Shown piece by piece: positions 2,563 to 12,448 of a stretch of 12,448 bases of DNA (position 1 is its first letter; the number at the start of each line of letters is the position of its first letter). The notes below the pieces were generated by a model. The model did no database searches, was not told the origin of the DNA, and saw only the letters and a program-made list of their open reading frames with translations. The stretch lies in IMG/VR virus record IMGVR_UViG_2648501165_000019. The stretch is one strand, 5' to 3'. Origin of the DNA: a virus (taxonomy: Duplodnaviria; Heunggongvirae; Uroviricota; Caudoviricetes). A program made the position numbers and the translations under genes.

Positions 2563-3105
2563 TTACTCGCCTTTCTTCTGTAGCAACTTTTCCGGTACGT
2601 TTCCGGTTGTTTCTTTCAAGTAATCAGCCAGTATCTGTGGGAGGTTGTCGGCAACTCTGGCACTGGCATTACAGGCTTTAACCACTTCCCTTTTAAGCCT
2701 GTCCAGCATGGCGGGGGTAATCTGTGGGAAGCTCCTTTGCATAGTAAGCGGGAGGCTGTCCATGATTGATGAAATCTGACTCGCCAGCTTTGAAAGCGCG
2801 TACAGGCAAAACTCAGTATCAATCACGTCACCGCGATCGCGATCGTTTTTAAGTTCCTGCGCCTCTGCCTGTGCTGTCAGTAATCTGATCCTGACTCGTA
2901 AAAGTTCATCATCGTCAATCTCGCCTTTGTCGTTTATAAGCTGGCTAATTGCATTGTTAACCCTATTTTCTATCACGCTGGCAACATCATAAAACGCCTC
3001 ACGGCCTTTACGCTCAACGGGAGTTACTCCCCACTTGTCGAACGCTGTCGCACTTACACGGCAGCTTTTCGCCATGTTTTTTTTGTTCATCAGATGAGAT
3101 TTCAT
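2563..3105 (-). CDS. terS: Terminase small subunit, lambda Nu1-like (180 aa)
   Basis: Length and sequence parallel lambda Nu1 as recalled, for example RLLTAQAEAQELKNDRDRGDVIDTEFCLYALSKLASQISSIMDSLPLTMQRSFP versus lambda RLTRAQADAQELKNARDSAEVVETAFCTFVLSRIAGEIASILDGLPLSVQRRFP. Lies immediately downstream of cos copy B in the lambda cos-Nu1 arrangement. Start could be Met1 (3105) or Met6 (3090). Confidence 0.85.
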   Translation of the reverse strand: MKSHLMNKKNMAKSCRVSATAFDKWGVTPVERKGREAFYDVASVIENRVNNAISQLINDKGEIDDDELLRVRIRLLTAQAEAQELKNDRDRGDVIDTEFCLYALSKLASQISSIMDSLPLTMQRSFPQITPAMLDRLKREVVKACNASARVADNLPQILADYLKETTGNVPEKLLQKKGE

Positions 3106-3722: not shown

Positions 3723-4058
3723 TTATCGGGCCAGCGGCTGAACGGATACGCCGGAACCCGCAAAGGCGGCGCATTTTTTCGCATCGGTGTCGACGCTCTC
3801 AGGCCAGTTAACGGCGGCAATATTGAATATCCCCGTCTTGTAACACTGTGCTGATTTCTGCTTTGACGTGTCCACAGGGTACGAGGTCAGATAAACAGCC
3901 TTGCCAGATTCCTGACCATCCCACGGCTTAAACTCGCCATTGTCTGCCAGCATCAGCGGGGTAAATTCCTGAATAACGCCAGCATCAGCGGCAAAATGTA
4001 CCAACGTCGTGGATACCTGCTGACTGCCTGCAAATAACTCAATGTATGGAGTGTCCAT
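3723..4058 (-). CDS. Head decoration protein, lambda gpD-like (111 aa)
   Basis: TPLMLADNGEFKPWDG, YKTGIFNIAAVNWPE and KKCAAFAGSGVSV parallel lambda gpD TPLMLDTSSRKLVAWDG, YKSGTFRYEDVLWPE and KKRTAFAGTAISIV (recalled). GGGGGG Shine-Dalgarno-like run upstream; start lies 13 nt after the capsid gene stop. Confidence 0.8.
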   Translation of the reverse strand: MDTPYIELFAGSQQVSTTLVHFAADAGVIQEFTPLMLADNGEFKPWDGQESGKAVYLTSYPVDTSKQKSAQCYKTGIFNIAAVNWPESVDTDAKKCAAFAGSGVSVQPLAR

Positions 4059-5934: not shown

Positions 5935-6207
5935 TTAGCTGTCCTGGTAATTGCGCCATATTTCATCACCAGCACCATCTATACCCATTTCGGCATAAGT
6001 GCGATCGACTGCCTTTTTCAGGTCTCCGAAATTATCCGGCGGCTCCGGTGCCCTCTGTGCCTTCCTTGAACATTCCAGCCGTCGCATCGTGATGTGATGC
6101 CGTTCCTTGTCTGTCTCCACCAGCTGCATGACTTCACCCCATCGCGCCGCCGCCCTCCGGTAAAAGCCTTTCGCCTCCAGTTCCTCCGCTATGCGGTCAT
6201 GTACCAT
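5935..6207 (-). CDS. Small putative transcriptional activator, PerC-like (90 aa from ATG at 6207)
   Basis: The longer frame to 6327 starts with GTG and overlaps the SSB gene. The ATG at 6207 follows the SSB stop with a GGGGGTG ribosome-binding site. Motif AEELEAKGFYRRAAARWGEVM resembles the signature I recall for PerC/Pch regulators; this is from memory and of moderate strength. Confidence 0.45.
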   Translation of the reverse strand: MVHDRIAEELEAKGFYRRAAARWGEVMQLVETDKERHHITMRRLECSRKAQRAPEPPDNFGDLKKAVDRTYAEMGIDGAGDEIWRNYQDS

Positions 6208-6217
6208 CGTCACCCCC

Positions 6218-6628
6218 TCAGAACGAAATATCATCACCGTAAGGGTCATCGCCTCCCGCTGGTGGCTGATTACCCTGTGTGCCTGTGGTTTTGCGTCTGT
6301 TCCCGCCTGGACGTGCCGCGCGGGCACTGATTACGCTGTCTGCGATAACCTGCCAGCCCTGCCGCGTTTCTCCGTTCTGTCCGGTCCACTGGCTTACCTG
6401 CATCGTGCCGGATACGCTGGCAACATCGCCTTTTTGATGTTTAGCCAGGAAGTCGGCCTGTTTGCCAAATGCGATGACCGATAACCATAACGTCGCCTGT
6501 CCGTCCTGTGCCTGGCTGCATGGCAAAGATACCGCCATACGCGCCAGCGTCATCGGTGTGCCCTTGCTGGTCTGTTTTACCTGCGGGTCGTCCACCAGCC
6601 GCCCGTAAGCGGCTATCTGTGCCGTCAT
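6218..6628 (-). CDS. Single-stranded DNA-binding protein (136 aa)
   Basis: OB-fold region parallels E. coli SSB (WLSVIAFGKQADFLAKHQKGDVASVSGTMQVSQWTGQNGETRQGWQVIA vs [50 protein letters not shown]). Gly/Pro-rich linker and acidic C-terminal tail DDPYGDDISF (E. coli SSB ends DDDIPF). ATGA start/stop overlap with the upstream gene. Confidence 0.85.
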   Translation of the reverse strand: MTAQIAAYGRLVDDPQVKQTSKGTPMTLARMAVSLPCSQAQDGQATLWLSVIAFGKQADFLAKHQKGDVASVSGTMQVSQWTGQNGETRQGWQVIADSVISARAARPGGNRRKTTGTQGNQPPAGGDDPYGDDISF

Positions 6629-6876
6629 AATTCCACCTCTCCGGTTTTAACGTTGATGGTTGTTACCTGTTCCGCTTCGGCAATCTCCCGTTCTGTCAGC
6701 GTGGCAAAGTTTGCCGCCGCCGTGGTCATGAATGCGCTTATCAGGTCGGGATGTTCCTTCGCGTATCCTTCCCGCGTGTGGCGGTCTATCGTTCTGATTG
6801 CCACCTTTAAGGTGTGCTCAGTCATGTCTAACGCTTTATATTTTGGCTCTGTTCTGTCTCTGCGTTTTTGGGTCAT
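6625..6876 (-). CDS. Hypothetical protein (83 aa from ATG at 6876)
   Basis: The ORF-track frame extends to 6906 but that start is GTG and lies inside the iteron array. The ATG at 6876 has a GAGG ribosome-binding site 9 nt upstream. Stop overlaps the SSB start (ATGA). Confidence 0.4.
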   Translation of the reverse strand: MTQKRRDRTEPKYKALDMTEHTLKVAIRTIDRHTREGYAKEHPDLISAFMTTAAANFATLTEREIAEAEQVTTINVKTGEVEL

Positions 6877-6885
6877 TTCTCGCAA

Positions 6886-7078
6886 CCTCTCACTTTTTCG
6901 CCTCACTTTTTCAAGCGTCTCACTTCGTCGCAGTTGGGATTTTCGGTTTTTCTATGTGTGTGTTTCATAAGTATTTTTTTACCCCTCACTTTTGAGGATG
7001 TATACAGGTCGAAAAGTGAGGGAGAGCGGGCTAATTTTGGCCCTCTTTCTATCCCCCTCGCTTTTGCTCCTCACTTTT
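6886..7078 (-). repeat. Iteron array, putative replication origin, immediately 3' of the helicase gene
   Basis: Seven copies of a CCTCACTTTT-type decamer: 6889-6897, 6901-6910, 6918-6927, 6984-6993, 7056-7065, 7069-7078, plus one inverted copy at 7011-7024. AT-rich spacer around 6961-6981. Confidence 0.6.
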
Positions 7079-8477
7079 ATAGCGGCGCTACATCATCCCC
7101 ATCGATACGAATAACCCCATCTTTTTCCAGCTTGTACAGCCAGCGCCGGAAGTTTTTCATTTCATACCCCAGCTTTTTCATGTCATCACGTAACAGCGGG
7201 ATCGTGCACTTGTCGCCGTTCTGTGTGCGTGAACGGATGCCCCCCCATAGCGCGGTATGGTTTTTCGTCTTGTTCCCTGCCTCCTCGATGCGCTCCAGTT
7301 CAACAGGAGGGCGCGGATCATCCACCACCACCAGCGACGTGATTAATTCACCGTCAGCGTCGGTAAAAAGCTCCACCACGCGTAAGTCATATGCGGCTTC
7401 TTTGAGTTCCTCCGCGTCCTTCATTTTGGTGCATGAGATAACCAGCGCTTCGCTTCCTGCGTCCTCCCTGCGTATCCGGTATTCAGCATCCAGCGAAGCA
7501 CGAAATGCACTGGAACCGCGCGCGCCTTTCGTCTCATCCTTGCCGGAATGGTGAACCACCAGCACCGTGGCCCCTGTGCGTCGTTTCAGTTCGTCACAAC
7601 CACGGATAAACGCCCCCATATCACGGGAATCATTTTCATCATTCCCACCAAAGCAACGCGCCAGCGTATCCAGAATAATCATGCGTACAGGTTTACCCGT
7701 TTCCCGCTCCACCTGACGGGCAGCGATAACCATTTCATCAACATCAAGCGGGGCAGCCGGAAAGATGGGGCGGTTTACCAGATACAGATTTTTCACCTGC
7801 TCATCGTGCACAACCTCCCAGGCTTTTACACGACGCGGAACACCTATACCGCCTTCACCAACCACATAGAGAACCGCACCATGTGCAACCCTGCGGCCTC
7901 CCCACTGGCGACCAGTGGCAACATGGCACGCCCACGATCCGGCAAGGAATGATTTATAGGACCCGCTAGCCCCGTATATGCTGCATAGCGATACCGCCGG
8001 AATAATCCCCTTAACCACGTAATCCAGTTGCGTGTCGTATCCGGTAGATCCAACGCTCATCGGTAGCGTGGTTTTTCGCTGGTGGTTTTTTTCTTCCGCC
8101 GGCTCTTTCCCGCGCACCCGTTCCAGGTATTCGCGCCAGTTCTCCCGCATATGGCTGTGCATCCCTTCGGGGTAATAATTCGCATCAGTTACACCCGCCG
8201 CCGCCAGCTTGTGCGCAATGGCATTAATATTTGATGGCCTGATGTGGCCTGCCTTGTACAGCCGGACACAATAGCGCCCCTCGTCGATGATTCTCAGGTC
8301 TGCCAGTTCATCCAGTTGATCATCAGCCAGCACAACGGGAGGCACATTATCGCCAGCCAGTCGCCCGTCCTGTTCCTGCCACTGTTTCGCATGTGCCCAG
8401 GCATCACTACCCGCAAAAATAATGACTTCGGTCATCTTGTCGTAAGGCTGTTTTTTTAAGTTCGGTGCGCTTTTCAT
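7077..8477 (-). CDS. Replication protein with RecA-like (RepA/DnaB-type) ATPase domain, putative helicase/initiator (466 aa)
   Basis: Walker A GASGSYKS (aa 169-176), Walker B-like MIILDTLARCFGGNDEND, and VLVVHHSGK motif typical of RepA-like replicative ATPases. N-terminal region of about 160 aa unassigned. AGGGG ribosome-binding site 6 nt upstream; ATGA overlap with the upstream gene. Confidence 0.7.
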   Translation of the reverse strand: MKSAPNLKKQPYDKMTEVIIFAGSDAWAHAKQWQEQDGRLAGDNVPPVVLADDQLDELADLRIIDEGRYCVRLYKAGHIRPSNINAIAHKLAAAGVTDANYYPEGMHSHMRENWREYLERVRGKEPAEEKNHQRKTTLPMSVGSTGYDTQLDYVVKGIIPAVSLCSIYGASGSYKSFLAGSWACHVATGRQWGGRRVAHGAVLYVVGEGGIGVPRRVKAWEVVHDEQVKNLYLVNRPIFPAAPLDVDEMVIAARQVERETGKPVRMIILDTLARCFGGNDENDSRDMGAFIRGCDELKRRTGATVLVVHHSGKDETKGARGSSAFRASLDAEYRIRREDAGSEALVISCTKMKDAEELKEAAYDLRVVELFTDADGELITSLVVVDDPRPPVELERIEEAGNKTKNHTALWGGIRSRTQNGDKCTIPLLRDDMKKLGYEMKNFRRWLYKLEKDGVIRIDGDDVAPL

Positions 8478-9469: not shown

Positions 9470-9671
9470 AAAGCATCCCCTGAATATTCGTGTTAATCAT
9501 TCCGGCACGTTTTGTGATTTCCTGTAATGATTCCCTTGTGGCGACAATTGCTTCATCTGGTAAGTGGTAATTACACACCACGCGACCTTTATCCACATTG
9601 ACCAGTAGCTGCCCTGTGAATTTCTCACGAAACTGAATGCGGTTAAGGTCAGTAAGTGACAGATTAATCAT
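9459..9671 (-). CDS. Hypothetical protein (70 aa from ATG at 9671)
   Basis: Strong ribosome-binding site AGGAGGT 5 nt upstream of the internal ATG; the longer frame to 9713 lacks one. Overlaps the upstream gene by 8 nt. Confidence 0.5.
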   Translation of the reverse strand: MINLSLTDLNRIQFREKFTGQLLVNVDKGRVVCNYHLPDEAIVATRESLQEITKRAGMINTNIQGMLYAQ

Positions 9672-9861
9672 GGCGCACCTCCTGACGAATACGGGCGGCA
9701 AATACAGCAACACAACCGGACGGGCAACGGTTACGCGCTTCGCGTTCCGTCCAGGCGGTTACGTGGATGATTTGAGATTCTCCGGCACTCAGTGCCAGAA
9801 AACGCCACACAAAGGCCGTTTGTGTGTGTACAAGGTGTGGTATATGATTTACGGCAACCAT
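9664..9861 (-). CDS. Hypothetical small protein (65 aa), first gene of the leftward early operon
   Basis: ATG at 9861 preceded by AGGAG with a 5-nt spacer. It is the 3' part of a long spurious frame (9664-10608) in the ORF track. Contains a CPSGC motif. No family recognised. Confidence 0.45.
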   Translation of the reverse strand: MVAVNHIPHLVHTQTAFVWRFLALSAGESQIIHVTAWTEREARNRCPSGCVAVFAARIRQEVRHD

Positions 9862-9923
9862 AACGGCTCCTAGTTTACGTTGTTGGTTAGACGCCCCGTA
9901 TGTGTTCCCAGCACTGCGGGGCG

Positions 9924-9994
9924 TTGATTTTTGTGTAATGGCAAGTACAATGGTAATTACCATGTAGGTATAGTAATAAAGGGTAATTACCATG
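9924..9994 (+). promoter_or_regulatory. Divergent control region: sigma70-like promoter for the RHH gene with two palindromic operators
   Basis: -35 TTGATT (9924-9929), 16-bp spacer, -10 TACAAT (9946-9951). Operator 1 ATGGTAATTACCAT (9950-9963, perfect 14-bp palindrome) overlaps the -10 and start site. Operator 2 GGTAATTACC (9982-9991) overlaps the RHH start codon. Centre-to-centre spacing is 30 bp. Confidence 0.6.
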
Positions 9995-10165
9995 TCAACA
10001 CCATTAGAAAAACGTTCGCCTCCATACCAAATGCGATTACCGGAAGACTTCAGAGCGCAGCTAGAAGAAGCAGCTAAGGCCGATGGCGACACATCTTTAG
10101 CCACTTGGATTAAACGCGTTCTCCGCAAAGAATTACAGCAACGCGGCATAGAACCCAAAGGATAA
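9992..10165 (+). CDS. Ribbon-helix-helix (Arc/Mnt-like) DNA-binding regulator, 57 aa; not in the supplied ORF track because it is under 60 aa
   Basis: Translation MSTPLEKRSPPYQMRLPEDFRAQLEEAAKADGDTSLATWIKRVLRKELQQRGIEPKG. The segment YQMRLPEDFRAQLEEAAKADGDTSLATWIKRVL fits the Arc-type beta-strand/helix/helix pattern. Divergent from the minus-strand operon and overlapped by the palindromic operators. Confidence 0.65.
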   Translation: MSTPLEKRSPPYQMRLPEDFRAQLEEAAKADGDTSLATWIKRVLRKELQQRGIEPKG

Positions 10166-10207
10166 AAACTATCAGCGCCGTGGTGTGAGGTATTACGGCG
10201 CATTGCT

Positions 10208-10396
10208 ATGCAGGACAACACAATGACCGATAAAGAATTGACCAAAACATTATCACCGGCACGGAAAAGACGGCGCAGAAAGATAGAGCATGAATCAGAA
10301 AGATTCGCGCCATGTGCTTTTGCCCTTGAGCAATTCCTTAAAGAGTACAGGGAAACGCGCCCATTGCAGGTATGGCAACGAACTGAACCAGACTGA
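10208..10396 (+). CDS. Possible small basic protein (62 aa) downstream of the RHH gene; weak call
   Basis: ORF lies between the RHH gene and the plus-strand terminator at 10490-10520. No convincing ribosome-binding site; Arg/Lys-rich centre. Confidence 0.25.
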   Translation: MQDNTMTDKELTKTLSPARKRRRRKIEHESERFAPCAFALEQFLKEYRETRPLQVWQRTEPD

Positions 10397-10489
10397 TAGC
10401 ATTGCCCACCAGCCTGATAGCGGCTATCATCCCCGTGCTTATGTTTGGGATCATATACACATAAGGCGCAGCGGGTTATCTGTTCAGAA

Positions 10490-10520
10490 AGGCGGCTCCA
10501 TTTCGGGGCCGCTTTTTTTA
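10490..10520 (+). terminator. Rho-independent terminator ending the rightward RHH transcript
   Basis: GCGGCTCC, ATTTC loop, GGGGCCGC (8-bp stem with one G-U pair) followed by TTTTTTT. Confidence 0.6.
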
Positions 10521-10665
10521 TGCCTGAAAAACCCCAATTTTGTGGTTTTCCAGTCTCACCAGGGCGAACGAATCCCCGCCCACGTTCTGGCGTATATTCA
10601 ATCTTCATGGTTATAGCTCTGTGTTCAGATGATTGATGTGTGGCGGCTGTGTGCCGCCAGCGTGA

Positions 10666-10854
10666 TTAATGAACTGCCTTGCAGCTATCCTTCCAGGCCA
10701 GAACCTCGGATAAAGACCAGCCAACGGAACGACCGCCAAGTTTACGACGTGATGGGAATTGTCCGGCCTTTTCCAGGCGGTAGCGACACGTACGGCTAAG
10801 GCCGGTTAGTTTTTCGCATTCTTTTTCACGTATAAACCGATCAGTGCTTAACAC
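10666..10854 (-). CDS. alpA: AlpA-family transcriptional regulator / putative excision activator (62 aa)
   Basis: LTGLSRTCRYRLEKAGQFPSRRKLGGRSVGWSLSEVLAW matches the AlpA helix-turn-helix signature as recalled. The start codon is GTG (10854-10852) with an AAGGGGG ribosome-binding site 5 nt upstream. Same orientation as int, as in P4-like and PICI-type elements. Confidence 0.8.
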   Translation of the reverse strand: MLSTDRFIREKECEKLTGLSRTCRYRLEKAGQFPSRRKLGGRSVGWSLSEVLAWKDSCKAVH

Positions 10855-11125
10855 TATTGCCCCCTTTCGTTTCTTAAAGAGTCATCAGGTGTCTTATTGT
10901 GTCGTATTGTTCCCGCTAGAGTGATGAATGGCAAATACTGAGGATGTATGATTTACAGAAAATGAAAAAGTAAGAATAAAATCTTTTAAATTCATGTTAA
11001 TACAAAGGCATAAAATATTGTTCCATGCCTTTTTTCTCGCTCTTTAAAGAGTGATTCGCTAGTGTATAAAAAACCAGTAACACATTAAAAATCAGCTACT
11101 TATAAATCCGTACGCTTTTTCGCCT

Positions 11126-11201
11126 CTTGTTCGTAGTTGTTCCACATTGTTGCTCATTGTTGCACGTTGTATCTGTTCGCATATCCAGTATGCGCATACT
11201 G
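11126..11201 (-). repeat. Helically phased TTGTT repeats plus a 14-bp palindrome in the int-alpA intergenic region
   Basis: TTGTT recurs at roughly 10-bp intervals across 11126-11180 (CTTGTTCGTAGTTGTTCCACATTGTTGCTCATTGTTGCACGTTGT), followed by the perfect palindrome AGTATGCGCATACT at 11188-11201. Confidence 0.5.
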
Positions 11202-11218: not shown

Positions 11219-12448
11219 TTATTTTCTTCTGGCTACTGGTAGCGTGGTTACGTTTTCATGTGTTCCCGCCAGTATCCCTAACCGCTCCGTCCACATATCC
11301 AGCGCATTGCGTTTCGCATCCAGATAACGGGAATGATTATAAACTCGCTGCATTCCTGGCATCTGGTGGCCTGTAAGCTGCTCCACGACATGCGGATCAA
11401 CGCCTAAATCGTTCAGCATGGTTGTAAAGGTGCGCCGGATGTCATGCAGTGACCAGTGAGGGTGATTAAGCCTCCTGTGCGCTAATCTTCCATACTGCGA
11501 TACGCTGGCCTCCTGTTTCACTTCCCCCAGCAATAAGCCCGTGTGCCTGTTCTGCTCCACCAGCTGCGTGATGAACGGCAGTATTGCTTCCGGTATAGGC
11601 CGGAATATGGCTACCTTCGTTTTGCTGTGCTCCTTCGGAACGGTCCAGAGCATTTCGGTAAAATCCCACTCGCTGATCTCCGATAACCTCAGTTCTACCG
11701 TCCGGCATCCGAACACAATCAGGAGGCGGATTAACGCGATGTAGTAGGGGGAGAATATTTTTTTGTCCAGTGCCTGCAATAATTCGCCCAGTTCTTTGGT
11801 GCTTAAGACACGCTCGCTTATATCCGGTTTTTTCCCAACGTCCGCCACACTCATATCATCAAGAACGTTGCTGATTGCATAGCGCCGCCTCCGGCAGAAC
11901 TTAAGCGCCTGTTTGCACGTCTGTAGCAAGAATCCGGCAGTAACAGGCGTTCGCTTTGCCACCTGGTCAAAACAGGCCAGCCAGTGCCGTAGCTCGCATT
12001 TATCCAGCGGCATAGCACCAATGTGCTGTATTACGTGATTATTAAGGCGCTTTTTCAGGGCGGCATAATCCACGCGGTTTTCCTTTGCGTACGACTCAAG
12101 CCAGTAGGTGAGCGCATCGCCAACCGTTACCGGCTTTAACGCTTCCTGTACGGTGTAATTAAGCTCATGACGTGGATTTTTCCCCTCTGCCAGCCATGCG
12201 CGACACTGGGCGGCTTTTTCCCTGGCTGATTTCAGGCTCAGATCAGGATAATTTCCCAGCTTAATGCGTTCCGGTGGTGCCCCCCTTCCCGTTCCGGCCC
12301 TGTAAGTGAAATACCAGGTTAAAAGGCCACTGGTTGAATGCCTGACGCTCAGGTTTCCACCGTCATTAAGAAAGGCTGTTTTTTGGGCGGGTGTGCCGTT
12401 GATTTTCCTCAGCTGTGTATCGCTCAGTTTGTTAAGTGCTCTGCTCAT
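11219..12448 (-). CDS. int: Tyrosine recombinase, P4-type integrase (409 aa); start codon is the last three bases of the window
   Basis: C-terminal catalytic region with HDIRRTFTT, LTGH and RVYNHSRY (candidate catalytic Tyr). N-terminal region with the DGG...W.F.YR pattern of P4-type arm-binding domains. Confidence 0.9.
   Translation of the reverse strand: MSRALNKLSDTQLRKINGTPAQKTAFLNDGGNLSVRHSTSGLLTWYFTYRAGTGRGAPPERIKLGNYPDLSLKSAREKAAQCRAWLAEGKNPRHELNYTVQEALKPVTVGDALTYWLESYAKENRVDYAALKKRLNNHVIQHIGAMPLDKCELRHWLACFDQVAKRTPVTAGFLLQTCKQALKFCRRRRYAISNVLDDMSVADVGKKPDISERVLSTKELGELLQALDKKIFSPYYIALIRLLIVFGCRTVELRLSEISEWDFTEMLWTVPKEHSKTKVAIFRPIPEAILPFITQLVEQNRHTGLLLGEVKQEASVSQYGRLAHRRLNHPHWSLHDIRRTFTTMLNDLGVDPHVVEQLTGHQMPGMQRVYNHSRYLDAKRNALDMWTERLGILAGTHENVTTLPVARRK

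Follow-up and report, generated by a model that had tools for sequence, protein, structure and literature searches.

The stretch of DNA analysed here, called the window (12,448 bases), is 99.9-100% identical to chromosomes of E. coli O157:H7, for example those of EC4115 and UTAK-1, and carries an island located between phoQ and roxA/pepT. In EC4115 this island (1535498-1546717, 11.2 kb) is one of the PICIs in Table S1 of Fillol-Salom et al. 2018 (PMC6092414), which agrees with the PICI identity suggested by an earlier, sequence-only reading of this DNA. All genes of the island are on the minus strand. They encode an integrase, a small HTH (AlpA-type) regulator, Icd-like proteins, a DUF4222 protein, a helicase, an 83-aa protein, a single-strand DNA-binding protein (SSB), a PerC-family regulator, a lambda E-like capsid protein, a D-like decoration protein and a small terminase. 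The size of the island, its integrase, its AlpA-type regulator, the single direction of its genes and the presence of replication and packaging/interference functions are those of a Gram-negative PICI, an element of about 10-15 kb at a location that prophages do not use. The genes that matter most for what follows are these:

7077-8477, minus strand: rep, coding for a 466-aa RepA-family helicase (RecA-fold, SF4-like), the proposed initiator-helicase
6625-6876, minus strand: conserved 83-aa gene of unassigned function (phrog_1231), which follows the putative origin in islands with all three types of rep gene
6218-6628, minus strand: gene of the island single-strand DNA-binding protein (Pfam SSB, E 1.7e-16)
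2563-3105: small terminase (TerS) gene

Three other parts of the island deserve mention. The gene for the PerC-family transcriptional activator occupies 5935-6327 (Pfam E 1.2e-42). Homologues of PerC encoded by PICIs reportedly act on the LEE pathogenicity island, and amplification of the island could shift the dosage of the PerC regulator and of virulence genes in O157:H7. Positions 9664-10608 form a single 314-codon open reading frame in the window, whereas the annotation of EC4115 divides the equivalent stretch into a short gene and a truncated pseudogene, both Icd-like. The most A+T-rich spot of the window (10950-11200, up to 85% in 40 bp) is situated between the gene of the small HTH regulator (10666-10854) and the integrase gene (11219-12448), and is presumably a regulatory region of the island.

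The 200-bp intergenic gap between the rep stop codon (7077-7079) and the start of the next gene at 6876 (gap 6877-7076) is occupied by an array of short repeats. A motif scan for CCTCACTTTT with at most one mismatch finds six matches in the window, all of them inside 6888-7078 (a span of 191 bp), five on the plus strand and one on the opposite strand (7012-7021). A seventh copy, TCTCACTTCG at 6918-6927, has three mismatches over the 10 bases and keeps the CTCACTT core, so that the total is seven CTCACTT-core repeats, one of them inverted. Read along the direction of transcription, the unit is AAAAGTGAGG. The array consists of the following elements:

7069-7078, minus strand: iteron 1, AAAAGTGAGG on the rep strand, sharing two bases with the rep stop codon
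7056-7065, minus strand: iteron 2, AAAAGCGAGG, with one mismatch
7012-7021, plus strand: iteron 3, the sole inverted copy, AAAAGTGAGG on the plus strand
6999-7006: TGTATACA palindrome enclosed by the inverted pair (iterons 3 and 4), where melting may nucleate
6984-6993, minus strand: iteron 4, AAAAGTGAGG on the rep strand, pairing with the inverted iteron 3
6938-6982: A+T-rich stretch, 73% A+T and structure-free as a single strand, the proposed unwinding element
6918-6927, minus strand: iteron 5, degenerate, CGAAGTGAGA on the rep strand with its core intact
6901-6910, minus strand: iteron 6, AAAAGTGAGG
6888-6897, minus strand: iteron 7, AAAAGTGAGA, 11 nt before the ATG of the next gene

Along the direction of transcription, the rep stop codon is thus followed by two good copies (7078-7056), a decayed third copy, the inverted pair (7021-7012 and 6993-6984), the A+T-rich stretch (6982-6938) and three more copies (6927-6888). 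In other words, a set of four copies (6984-7078) and a set of three (6888-6927) flank positions 6938-6982. All copies except that at 7012-7021 have the same orientation, and about the centre of the TGTATACA palindrome the iterons of the two sides face each other. The seven copies of the window compare with up to 10-14 in its relatives, the third rep-proximal copy being decayed here. The seven repeats, one inverted, within about 190 bp that the sequence-only reading had described are therefore there, as six good matches and the degenerate copy at 6918-6927, and so is its overlap of the array with the end of the preceding gene, two bases of iteron 1 (7069-7078) belonging to the stop codon (7077-7079). 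The A+T-rich stretch that it had placed in the middle of the array is real but moderate.

The clustering is not random. The expected number of CCTCACTTTT matches is 0.82, and none of 200 dinucleotide-preserving shuffles of the sequence reached the observed six. That the array is a chance or neutral low-complexity cluster without function has a practically negligible probability: the shortness of the repeat unit is all that speaks for it, and apart from the shuffles it is already refuted by the comparative data described below, where the positions of the repeats are kept across genera while their sequence changes in concert.

Several other signals were looked for in and around the gap. The G+C content falls to 44.5% in the intergenic region, compared with 55-59% in the flanking genes. 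The richest 40-mer of the A+T-rich stretch (75% A+T) is at the 99th percentile of the window, and about seven other 40-mers of the window equal or exceed it. As a single strand, the arms of the inverted pair could fold into a stem of 11 bp (delta G -9.7 kcal/mol, z -5.1). No DnaA box with at most one mismatch occurs in 6877-7076, and the two found elsewhere in the window are at chance level. A promoter and terminator scan of 6700-7250 detected no sigma-70-like promoter on either strand and one weak terminator-like hairpin on the non-coding (plus) strand, which is within chance expectation. An Rfam search of the whole window matched no family. A sequence search with the origin DNA found no match in phage genomes, and hence there is no sign of a helper phage that shares these iterons. 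The final copy of the array, AAAAGTGAGAGG on the rep strand, contains GAGAGG and stops 11 nt short of the ATG at 6876. It may also serve the 83-aa gene as a ribosome-binding site, in which case binding of Rep could affect translation or expression of that gene.

The product of rep is labelled 'helicase RepA family protein' in RefSeq. Residues 148-315 match Pfam AAA_25 (E 2.4e-43), and the core matches RSF1010 RepA (1g8y, E 0.0056). The full-length AlphaFold2 model has an overall pLDDT of 64.5 and a poor ATPase core. Because the core is poorly modelled, a Foldseek search with the entire model yielded RecA-fold proteins (RadA/Rad51, probability 1.0) and otherwise noise. No replication protein family other than this RepA-like helicase core was detected in the island, and no recognisable active primase is encoded by it. 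The N-terminal domain (residues 1-126, window 8100-8477) matches no Pfam family and bears a weak resemblance to part of the phage primase family phrog_864. Two unrelated versions of this domain recombine freely with the same helicase core, and in the Xenorhabdus Rep, which has 680 aa, the N-terminus is longer.

The C-terminal part of Rep behaves differently in prediction from the poorly modelled core. Residues 400-466 have a pLDDT of 84-92 in the AlphaFold2 model and form a helix-helix-helix-hairpin, with helices at 405-419, 426-435 and 443-452 and strands at 456-459 and 462-465. The domain becomes visible to Foldseek only if it is modelled alone (pLDDT 78). The top PDB match is then the winged-helix domain of MCM8 (6l0o, probability 0.98, TM about 0.6), followed by winged helices of IclR, MarR, IdeR and SelB; the E-values are weak, as expected with a 75-residue query. 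Individual Rep homologues have weak Pfam MarR and HTH_Crp_2 matches at the C-terminus, and a profile of this region gave sub-threshold matches against the PDB (Crp/Fnr-type HTH, E 0.2), which are suggestive but unusable alone. On the strength of the models we are confident that the C-terminal domain folds as a winged helix. Two features within rep are of interest here:

7080-7280, minus strand: predicted C-terminal winged-helix domain of Rep (residues ~400-466), the proposed iteron-binding domain
7152-7154, minus strand: codon of Asn442, which caps the recognition helix at its N-terminus and is proposed to determine the specificity for the variable base of the iteron

The organization of the array can be compared among 160 loci with Rep relatives, collected from one genome per species and from IMG/VR, for each of which the 260 bp past the rep stop codon were extracted. 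Every relative examined has the repeats in the same places. The layout recurs in Escherichia, Xenorhabdus, Pantoea, Pectobacterium, Morganella and Kosakonia: copies begin at the stop codon, an inverted pair lies about 60-73 nt downstream, and an A-rich stretch and a distal set follow. The inverted pair is found in 124 of the 131 unique origins, and in 119 of these 124 a TATA(C/T)A-type core, irrespective of the iteron class, is located between its arms. The repeat itself differs by lineage, being AAAAGTGAGG, AAAAGTGGGG, AAGTGGGGG or TAAGTGCGGCA, with most copies of an origin changed together.

The identity of the variable base follows residue 442 of Rep, which lies in the context K441-N442-F443-R444-R445-W446 and caps the N-terminus of the predicted third (recognition) helix. 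Among the 131 unique Rep/origin pairs, 126 are callable, that is, have at least three scorable iterons, and in all 126 the residue predicts the base. Asn is accompanied by A (GTGAG) in 51 of 51 pairs, His by G (GTGGG) in 42 of 42, Lys by G (GTGGG) in 26 of 26, and Ser by C (GTGCG) in 7 of 7. The mutual information between column 442 and the iteron class is 1.24 bits, which is the full entropy, and that of the next best column is 0.675. No other among the 330 columns of the alignment predicts the class fully. Within the closely related E. coli-type subset, column 442 is again the sole full predictor (0.995 versus 0.39 bits). The plasmid pKp_Goe_795-4, which lies outside the set from which the rule was derived, provides an independent check: its Rep has Ser at the position of residue 442, and its iterons are TAAGTGCGGCA in the same layout.

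The codons of the winged helix are less than 200 bp from the origin, and for this reason the covariation could partly reflect co-inheritance. Direct recognition is suggested by three observations: 1) a single column is fully informative; 2) this column is at the start of the recognition helix; 3) near-isogenic pairs differ there. In one such pair (L119 and L121), the last 62 residues of the two proteins differ at two positions, N442H and one other, and most of the iterons have A in one locus and G in the other. L005/L125 and L146/L152 are comparable pairs on other sequence backgrounds. Parsimony on a neighbour-joining tree requires at least 12 changes of state, part of which are surely due to recombination rather than mutation. 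Recombination, or module swapping, can be viewed directly in L162. Over its full length, the Rep of this locus is 65% identical to that of the window, but the two agree in all of the last 74 residues, and the origin of L162 is essentially that of the window with a few substitutions. The N-terminal domain was considered as the determinant of specificity and is excluded, since both of its unrelated types occur with both iteron classes. From the perfect covariation between residue and base we infer that the winged helix of Rep would recognize the iterons.

A few loci depart from the common pattern. Xenorhabdus beddingii (L008:3583-4010), alone among the 131 unique loci, has two complete origin-like arrays in tandem behind one rep gene. 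The first consists of GTGAGG iterons, which fit the Asn-class Rep of this locus. The second (about 3808-4010) has GTGGGG/ATGGGG iterons, typical of the His/Lys class, together with an inverted pair and TATATA core of its own, and represents an orphan origin for another Rep or else a relic of recombination. Two E. coli-type loci from IMG/VR (L121 and L123) contain hybrid origins in the 260 bp past the rep stop codon. Their Reps are of the Asn class, their rep-proximal iterons and inverted pair are GTGAGG, and most of their distal copies are GTGGGG and resemble those of the near-identical, His-class L119. This arrangement points to recombination with breakpoints inside the origin, or to a specificity switch caught at an intermediate stage.

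The element pKp_Goe_795-4 mentioned above (CP018459.1, K. pneumoniae, L168) was deposited as a circular plasmid of 16,971 bp. It contains an integrase gene, capsid, head-tail adaptor and terminase genes, a gene annotated as tape measure and a Rep of the type found in the window, which is of the Ser class with GTGCGGCA iterons. It is a capsid-forming PICI-like island and not an ordinary plasmid, and it may be an excised, replicating island that was caught by the assembly. Its deposition as a circular plasmid indicates that elements with this Rep may occur as episomes.

Islands that are syntenic with that of the window show what the repeats belong to. EcCICFT073 and EcCIEDL933 share with the window the upstream DUF4222 gene, the downstream gene of 83-85 aa, SSB and PerC, and the slots compared (window 6877-8477, L006:6374-8876 for EcCIEDL933 and L007:2242-4284 for EcCICFT073) are located at the same chromosomal site. 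The rep genes of the three islands are mutually unrelated. That of EcCICFT073 encodes a D5_N/DUF5906/Pox_D5 protein (SF3, D5-like), and the repeats of its gap are GGTAGA(C/T)AG. That of EcCIEDL933 encodes a DUF927 protein with an HTH_56 tail (DUF927/Cch type), and the same gap has at least 11 TGCGGGTTA repeats. One slot in near-identical islands thus accepts at least three unrelated cassettes of helicase and origin. The iterons differ with rep and not with the neighbouring genes, which means that iterons and rep move as one cassette. As far as these sequences tell, phage satellites evidently exchange their replication modules as units of the rep C-terminus and ori.

These comparisons bear on two other functions that the repeats might have. 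They could be operators, or part of a promoter, for some other regulator of the downstream operon, such as AlpA, the DUF4222 protein, PerC, the 83-aa protein or a helper-phage protein. An intergenic site ahead of an operon would suit this function, and repeated sites are typical of operators. No sigma-70-like promoter was found on either strand, however, unrelated repeats accompany the same downstream genes and a DUF4222-type upstream gene when the rep gene is a different one, and a column of Rep is the sole protein column that tracks the repeat sequence, all of which makes an operator very improbable. The repeats could also be a packaging signal for the small terminase (2563-3105), in the form of cosB R-like sites or a pac site, as the island encodes TerS and terminase small subunits bind repeated sites (lambda cosB). 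Yet an element with the window's type of rep and a different packaging module and TerS (L005) retains the iteron architecture, and the iterons match its class of Rep. The same architecture adjoins rep in an element with an HK97-type full packaging module (L002) and in the Klebsiella element pKp_Goe_795-4. As the repeats, moreover, track a residue of Rep, a packaging signal is extremely improbable.

The array is most probably the vegetative replication origin (ori) of an EcCICFT073-like PICI, a reading of the sequence to which we give a probability of roughly 0.85. Its basis is the repeats, their non-random clustering, the conservation of their positions, their linkage to rep, the predicted winged helix and the residue-base covariation. 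PICI and SaPI origins have iteron sets around an A+T-rich region directly 3' of rep (PMC6092414, PMC9371898). The SaPI ori in particular comprises 6-12 iterons right after the rep ORF and a central A+T-rich region (Qiao et al. 2022, PMC9371898), with at least two iterons per side in opposed directions (PMC9371898), and the SaPI Reps bind the iterons just downstream of rep with a C-terminal winged helix and load themselves without a loader (PMC9371898). In the window, the array is located immediately 3' of the initiator gene, two sets of short iterons flank the A+T-rich region, and the helicase is predicted to have a C-terminal winged helix, whose recognition of the iterons would follow from the covariation.

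The sequence-only reading had already proposed a putative origin here, by analogy with the rep-then-iterons layout of SaPIs/PICIs. This proposal is now supported computationally by layout, gene identities and comparative data, and the layout is a functional one in EcCICFT073, a syntenic island in which it occupies the corresponding slot. The RecA-like nature of the replication gene (Pfam AAA_25, RSF1010 RepA 1g8y, RadA/Rad51 fold) and the island-encoded SSB (Pfam SSB, E 1.7e-16) are borne out as well. The repeats of the homologues are not only in place, they also co-vary with the DNA-binding domain of Rep.

Alternatively, the iterons might be Rep sites used for control, by titration, 'handcuffing' or a block of read-through into the SSB/PerC/capsid operon, with the origin located elsewhere. 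The covariation ties the repeats to Rep, and not to initiation as such. The array is positioned between rep and co-directional downstream genes, with its last copy 11 nt from an ATG, and plasmid iterons serve both initiation and copy control. The absence of any further iteron copy outside 6888-7078 in the window (scan with at most one mismatch) means, however, that no alternative origin with these sites exists there, and the array has a structure-free A+T-rich stretch and a conserved TATA palindrome within it. The rep-ori segment of EcCICFT073 maintains a plasmid, and deletion of its rep or ori impairs maintenance (PMC6092414), so that the region equivalent to the array is needed for this function. 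Control in place of initiation is therefore rather improbable. The two roles are not mutually exclusive.

If the array is the origin, replication may be envisaged to proceed as follows. After induction and excision of the island, the C-terminal winged helix of Rep would bind the AAAAGTGAGG iterons, Asn442 at the start of the recognition helix reading the A of GTGAG. Rep molecules on the inverted pair (6984-7021) and on the iteron sets close to rep (7056-7078) and distal to it (6888-6927) would distort the DNA, which would then open at the TATA palindrome TGTATACA and the adjoining 73% A+T stretch (6938-6982). Rep would assemble there as the replicative helicase, loading itself, and the SSB of the island would coat the opened strands. 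Host primase and polymerase III would complete the replisome. The host primase is expected because no active primase is recognisable in the island, and a 5'-3' polarity is expected for Rep because its motor is RepA/DnaB-like. We infer the binding of Rep, the opening of the DNA and self-loading by analogy with the SaPI Reps, and replication at the array is equally putative.

An origin next to rep is an expected feature of PICIs, known in the field since 2007 and 2018, and adds little. The kind of origin is already known for PICIs, the EC4115 island is already catalogued, and the iteron of the window may already be drawn in Fig. 2a of PMC6092414. No earlier description was found in the literature consulted of a RecA-fold Rep as a PICI initiator or of the rule that links residue 442 to the iteron base. 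The odds are about even that a RecA-fold helicase with a winged helix is a self-loading PICI initiator whose specificity is set by a code of one residue and one base at residue 442. In this code, Asn would select A, His or Lys G, and Ser C, at position 4 of the GTGNG core. If so, Rep would be a third, non-homologous motor in the role known for SF3 and MCM-like Reps, N442H together with A-to-G changes of the iterons would make a new replicon specificity group, and the hybrid (L121, L123) and tandem (L008) origins would be intermediates of specificity switches. The covariation of Asn/His/Lys/Ser with A/G/G/C is a testable rule for the joint change of initiator and origin specificity, and it bears on the compatibility of satellites, on the cross-activation of co-resident islands and on the design of orthogonal replicons.

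The proposed initiator and origin can be compared with several known replicons. Plasmid initiators of the Rep_3 type (RK2 TrfA, pPS10 RepA, F RepE) resemble Rep as proposed here in that winged helices bind direct repeats beside an A+T-rich unwinding element. These initiators have no helicase domain, and host DnaB is recruited via DnaA boxes. A DnaA-dependent Rep_3 plasmid origin was rejected, given that Pfam finds no Rep_3 match and 6877-7076 contains no DnaA box with at most one mismatch.

The IncQ plasmid RSF1010 has a homologous RepA helicase core, and its origin also consists of iterons and an A+T-rich region. There the work is divided between RepC, which binds the iterons, RepA, which unwinds the DNA, and RepB', which primes; the iterons are 20 bp long, and ssi hairpins are present. 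The helicase of the window, unlike RSF1010 RepA, carries its own predicted winged helix, and the island has no homologue of RepB or RepC. An IncQ replicon was rejected on this ground, as the RepA-like helicase core is all that is shared and neither RepC nor RepB' was detected in the island.

P4, likewise a phage satellite of enterobacteria, has an alpha protein that unites a helicase with C-terminal origin binding to short repeated sites. Alpha differs from Rep in being a primase with an SF3 helicase, and P4 uses two separated cis sites, ori and crr. Neither alpha nor its sites have sequence similarity to the Rep or the iterons of the window. The SaPI Rep/ori systems share with the window a self-contained initiator-helicase and a C-terminal winged helix that reads the iterons (both as predicted here), iterons directly after rep and an A+T-rich centre. 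The SaPI Reps are, in contrast, AAA+ (SF3/MCM-like) 3'-5' helicases of Gram-positive hosts, often accompanied by a primase that is either separate or fused, and the SaPI iterons are opposed on the two sides, whereas all but one of those in the window are co-oriented.

EcCICFT073 belongs to the same family of islands as that of the window. Its origin has been probed by experiment, that of the window being predicted from sequence. The two differ in the initiator, which is a 584-aa SF3 Rep (D5_N/DUF5906/Pox_D5) in EcCICFT073 and a RecA-fold RepA-type protein in the window, and in the iteron, GGTAGA(C/T)AG compared with AAAAGTGAGG. They agree in the order of their genes (DUF4222, rep, gap, the 83-85-aa gene, SSB, PerC and the lambda E/D-like capsid genes) and in the position of the origin (putative in the window), which in both islands occupies the same gap just 3' of rep and has iterons in both orientations around an A+T-rich centre.
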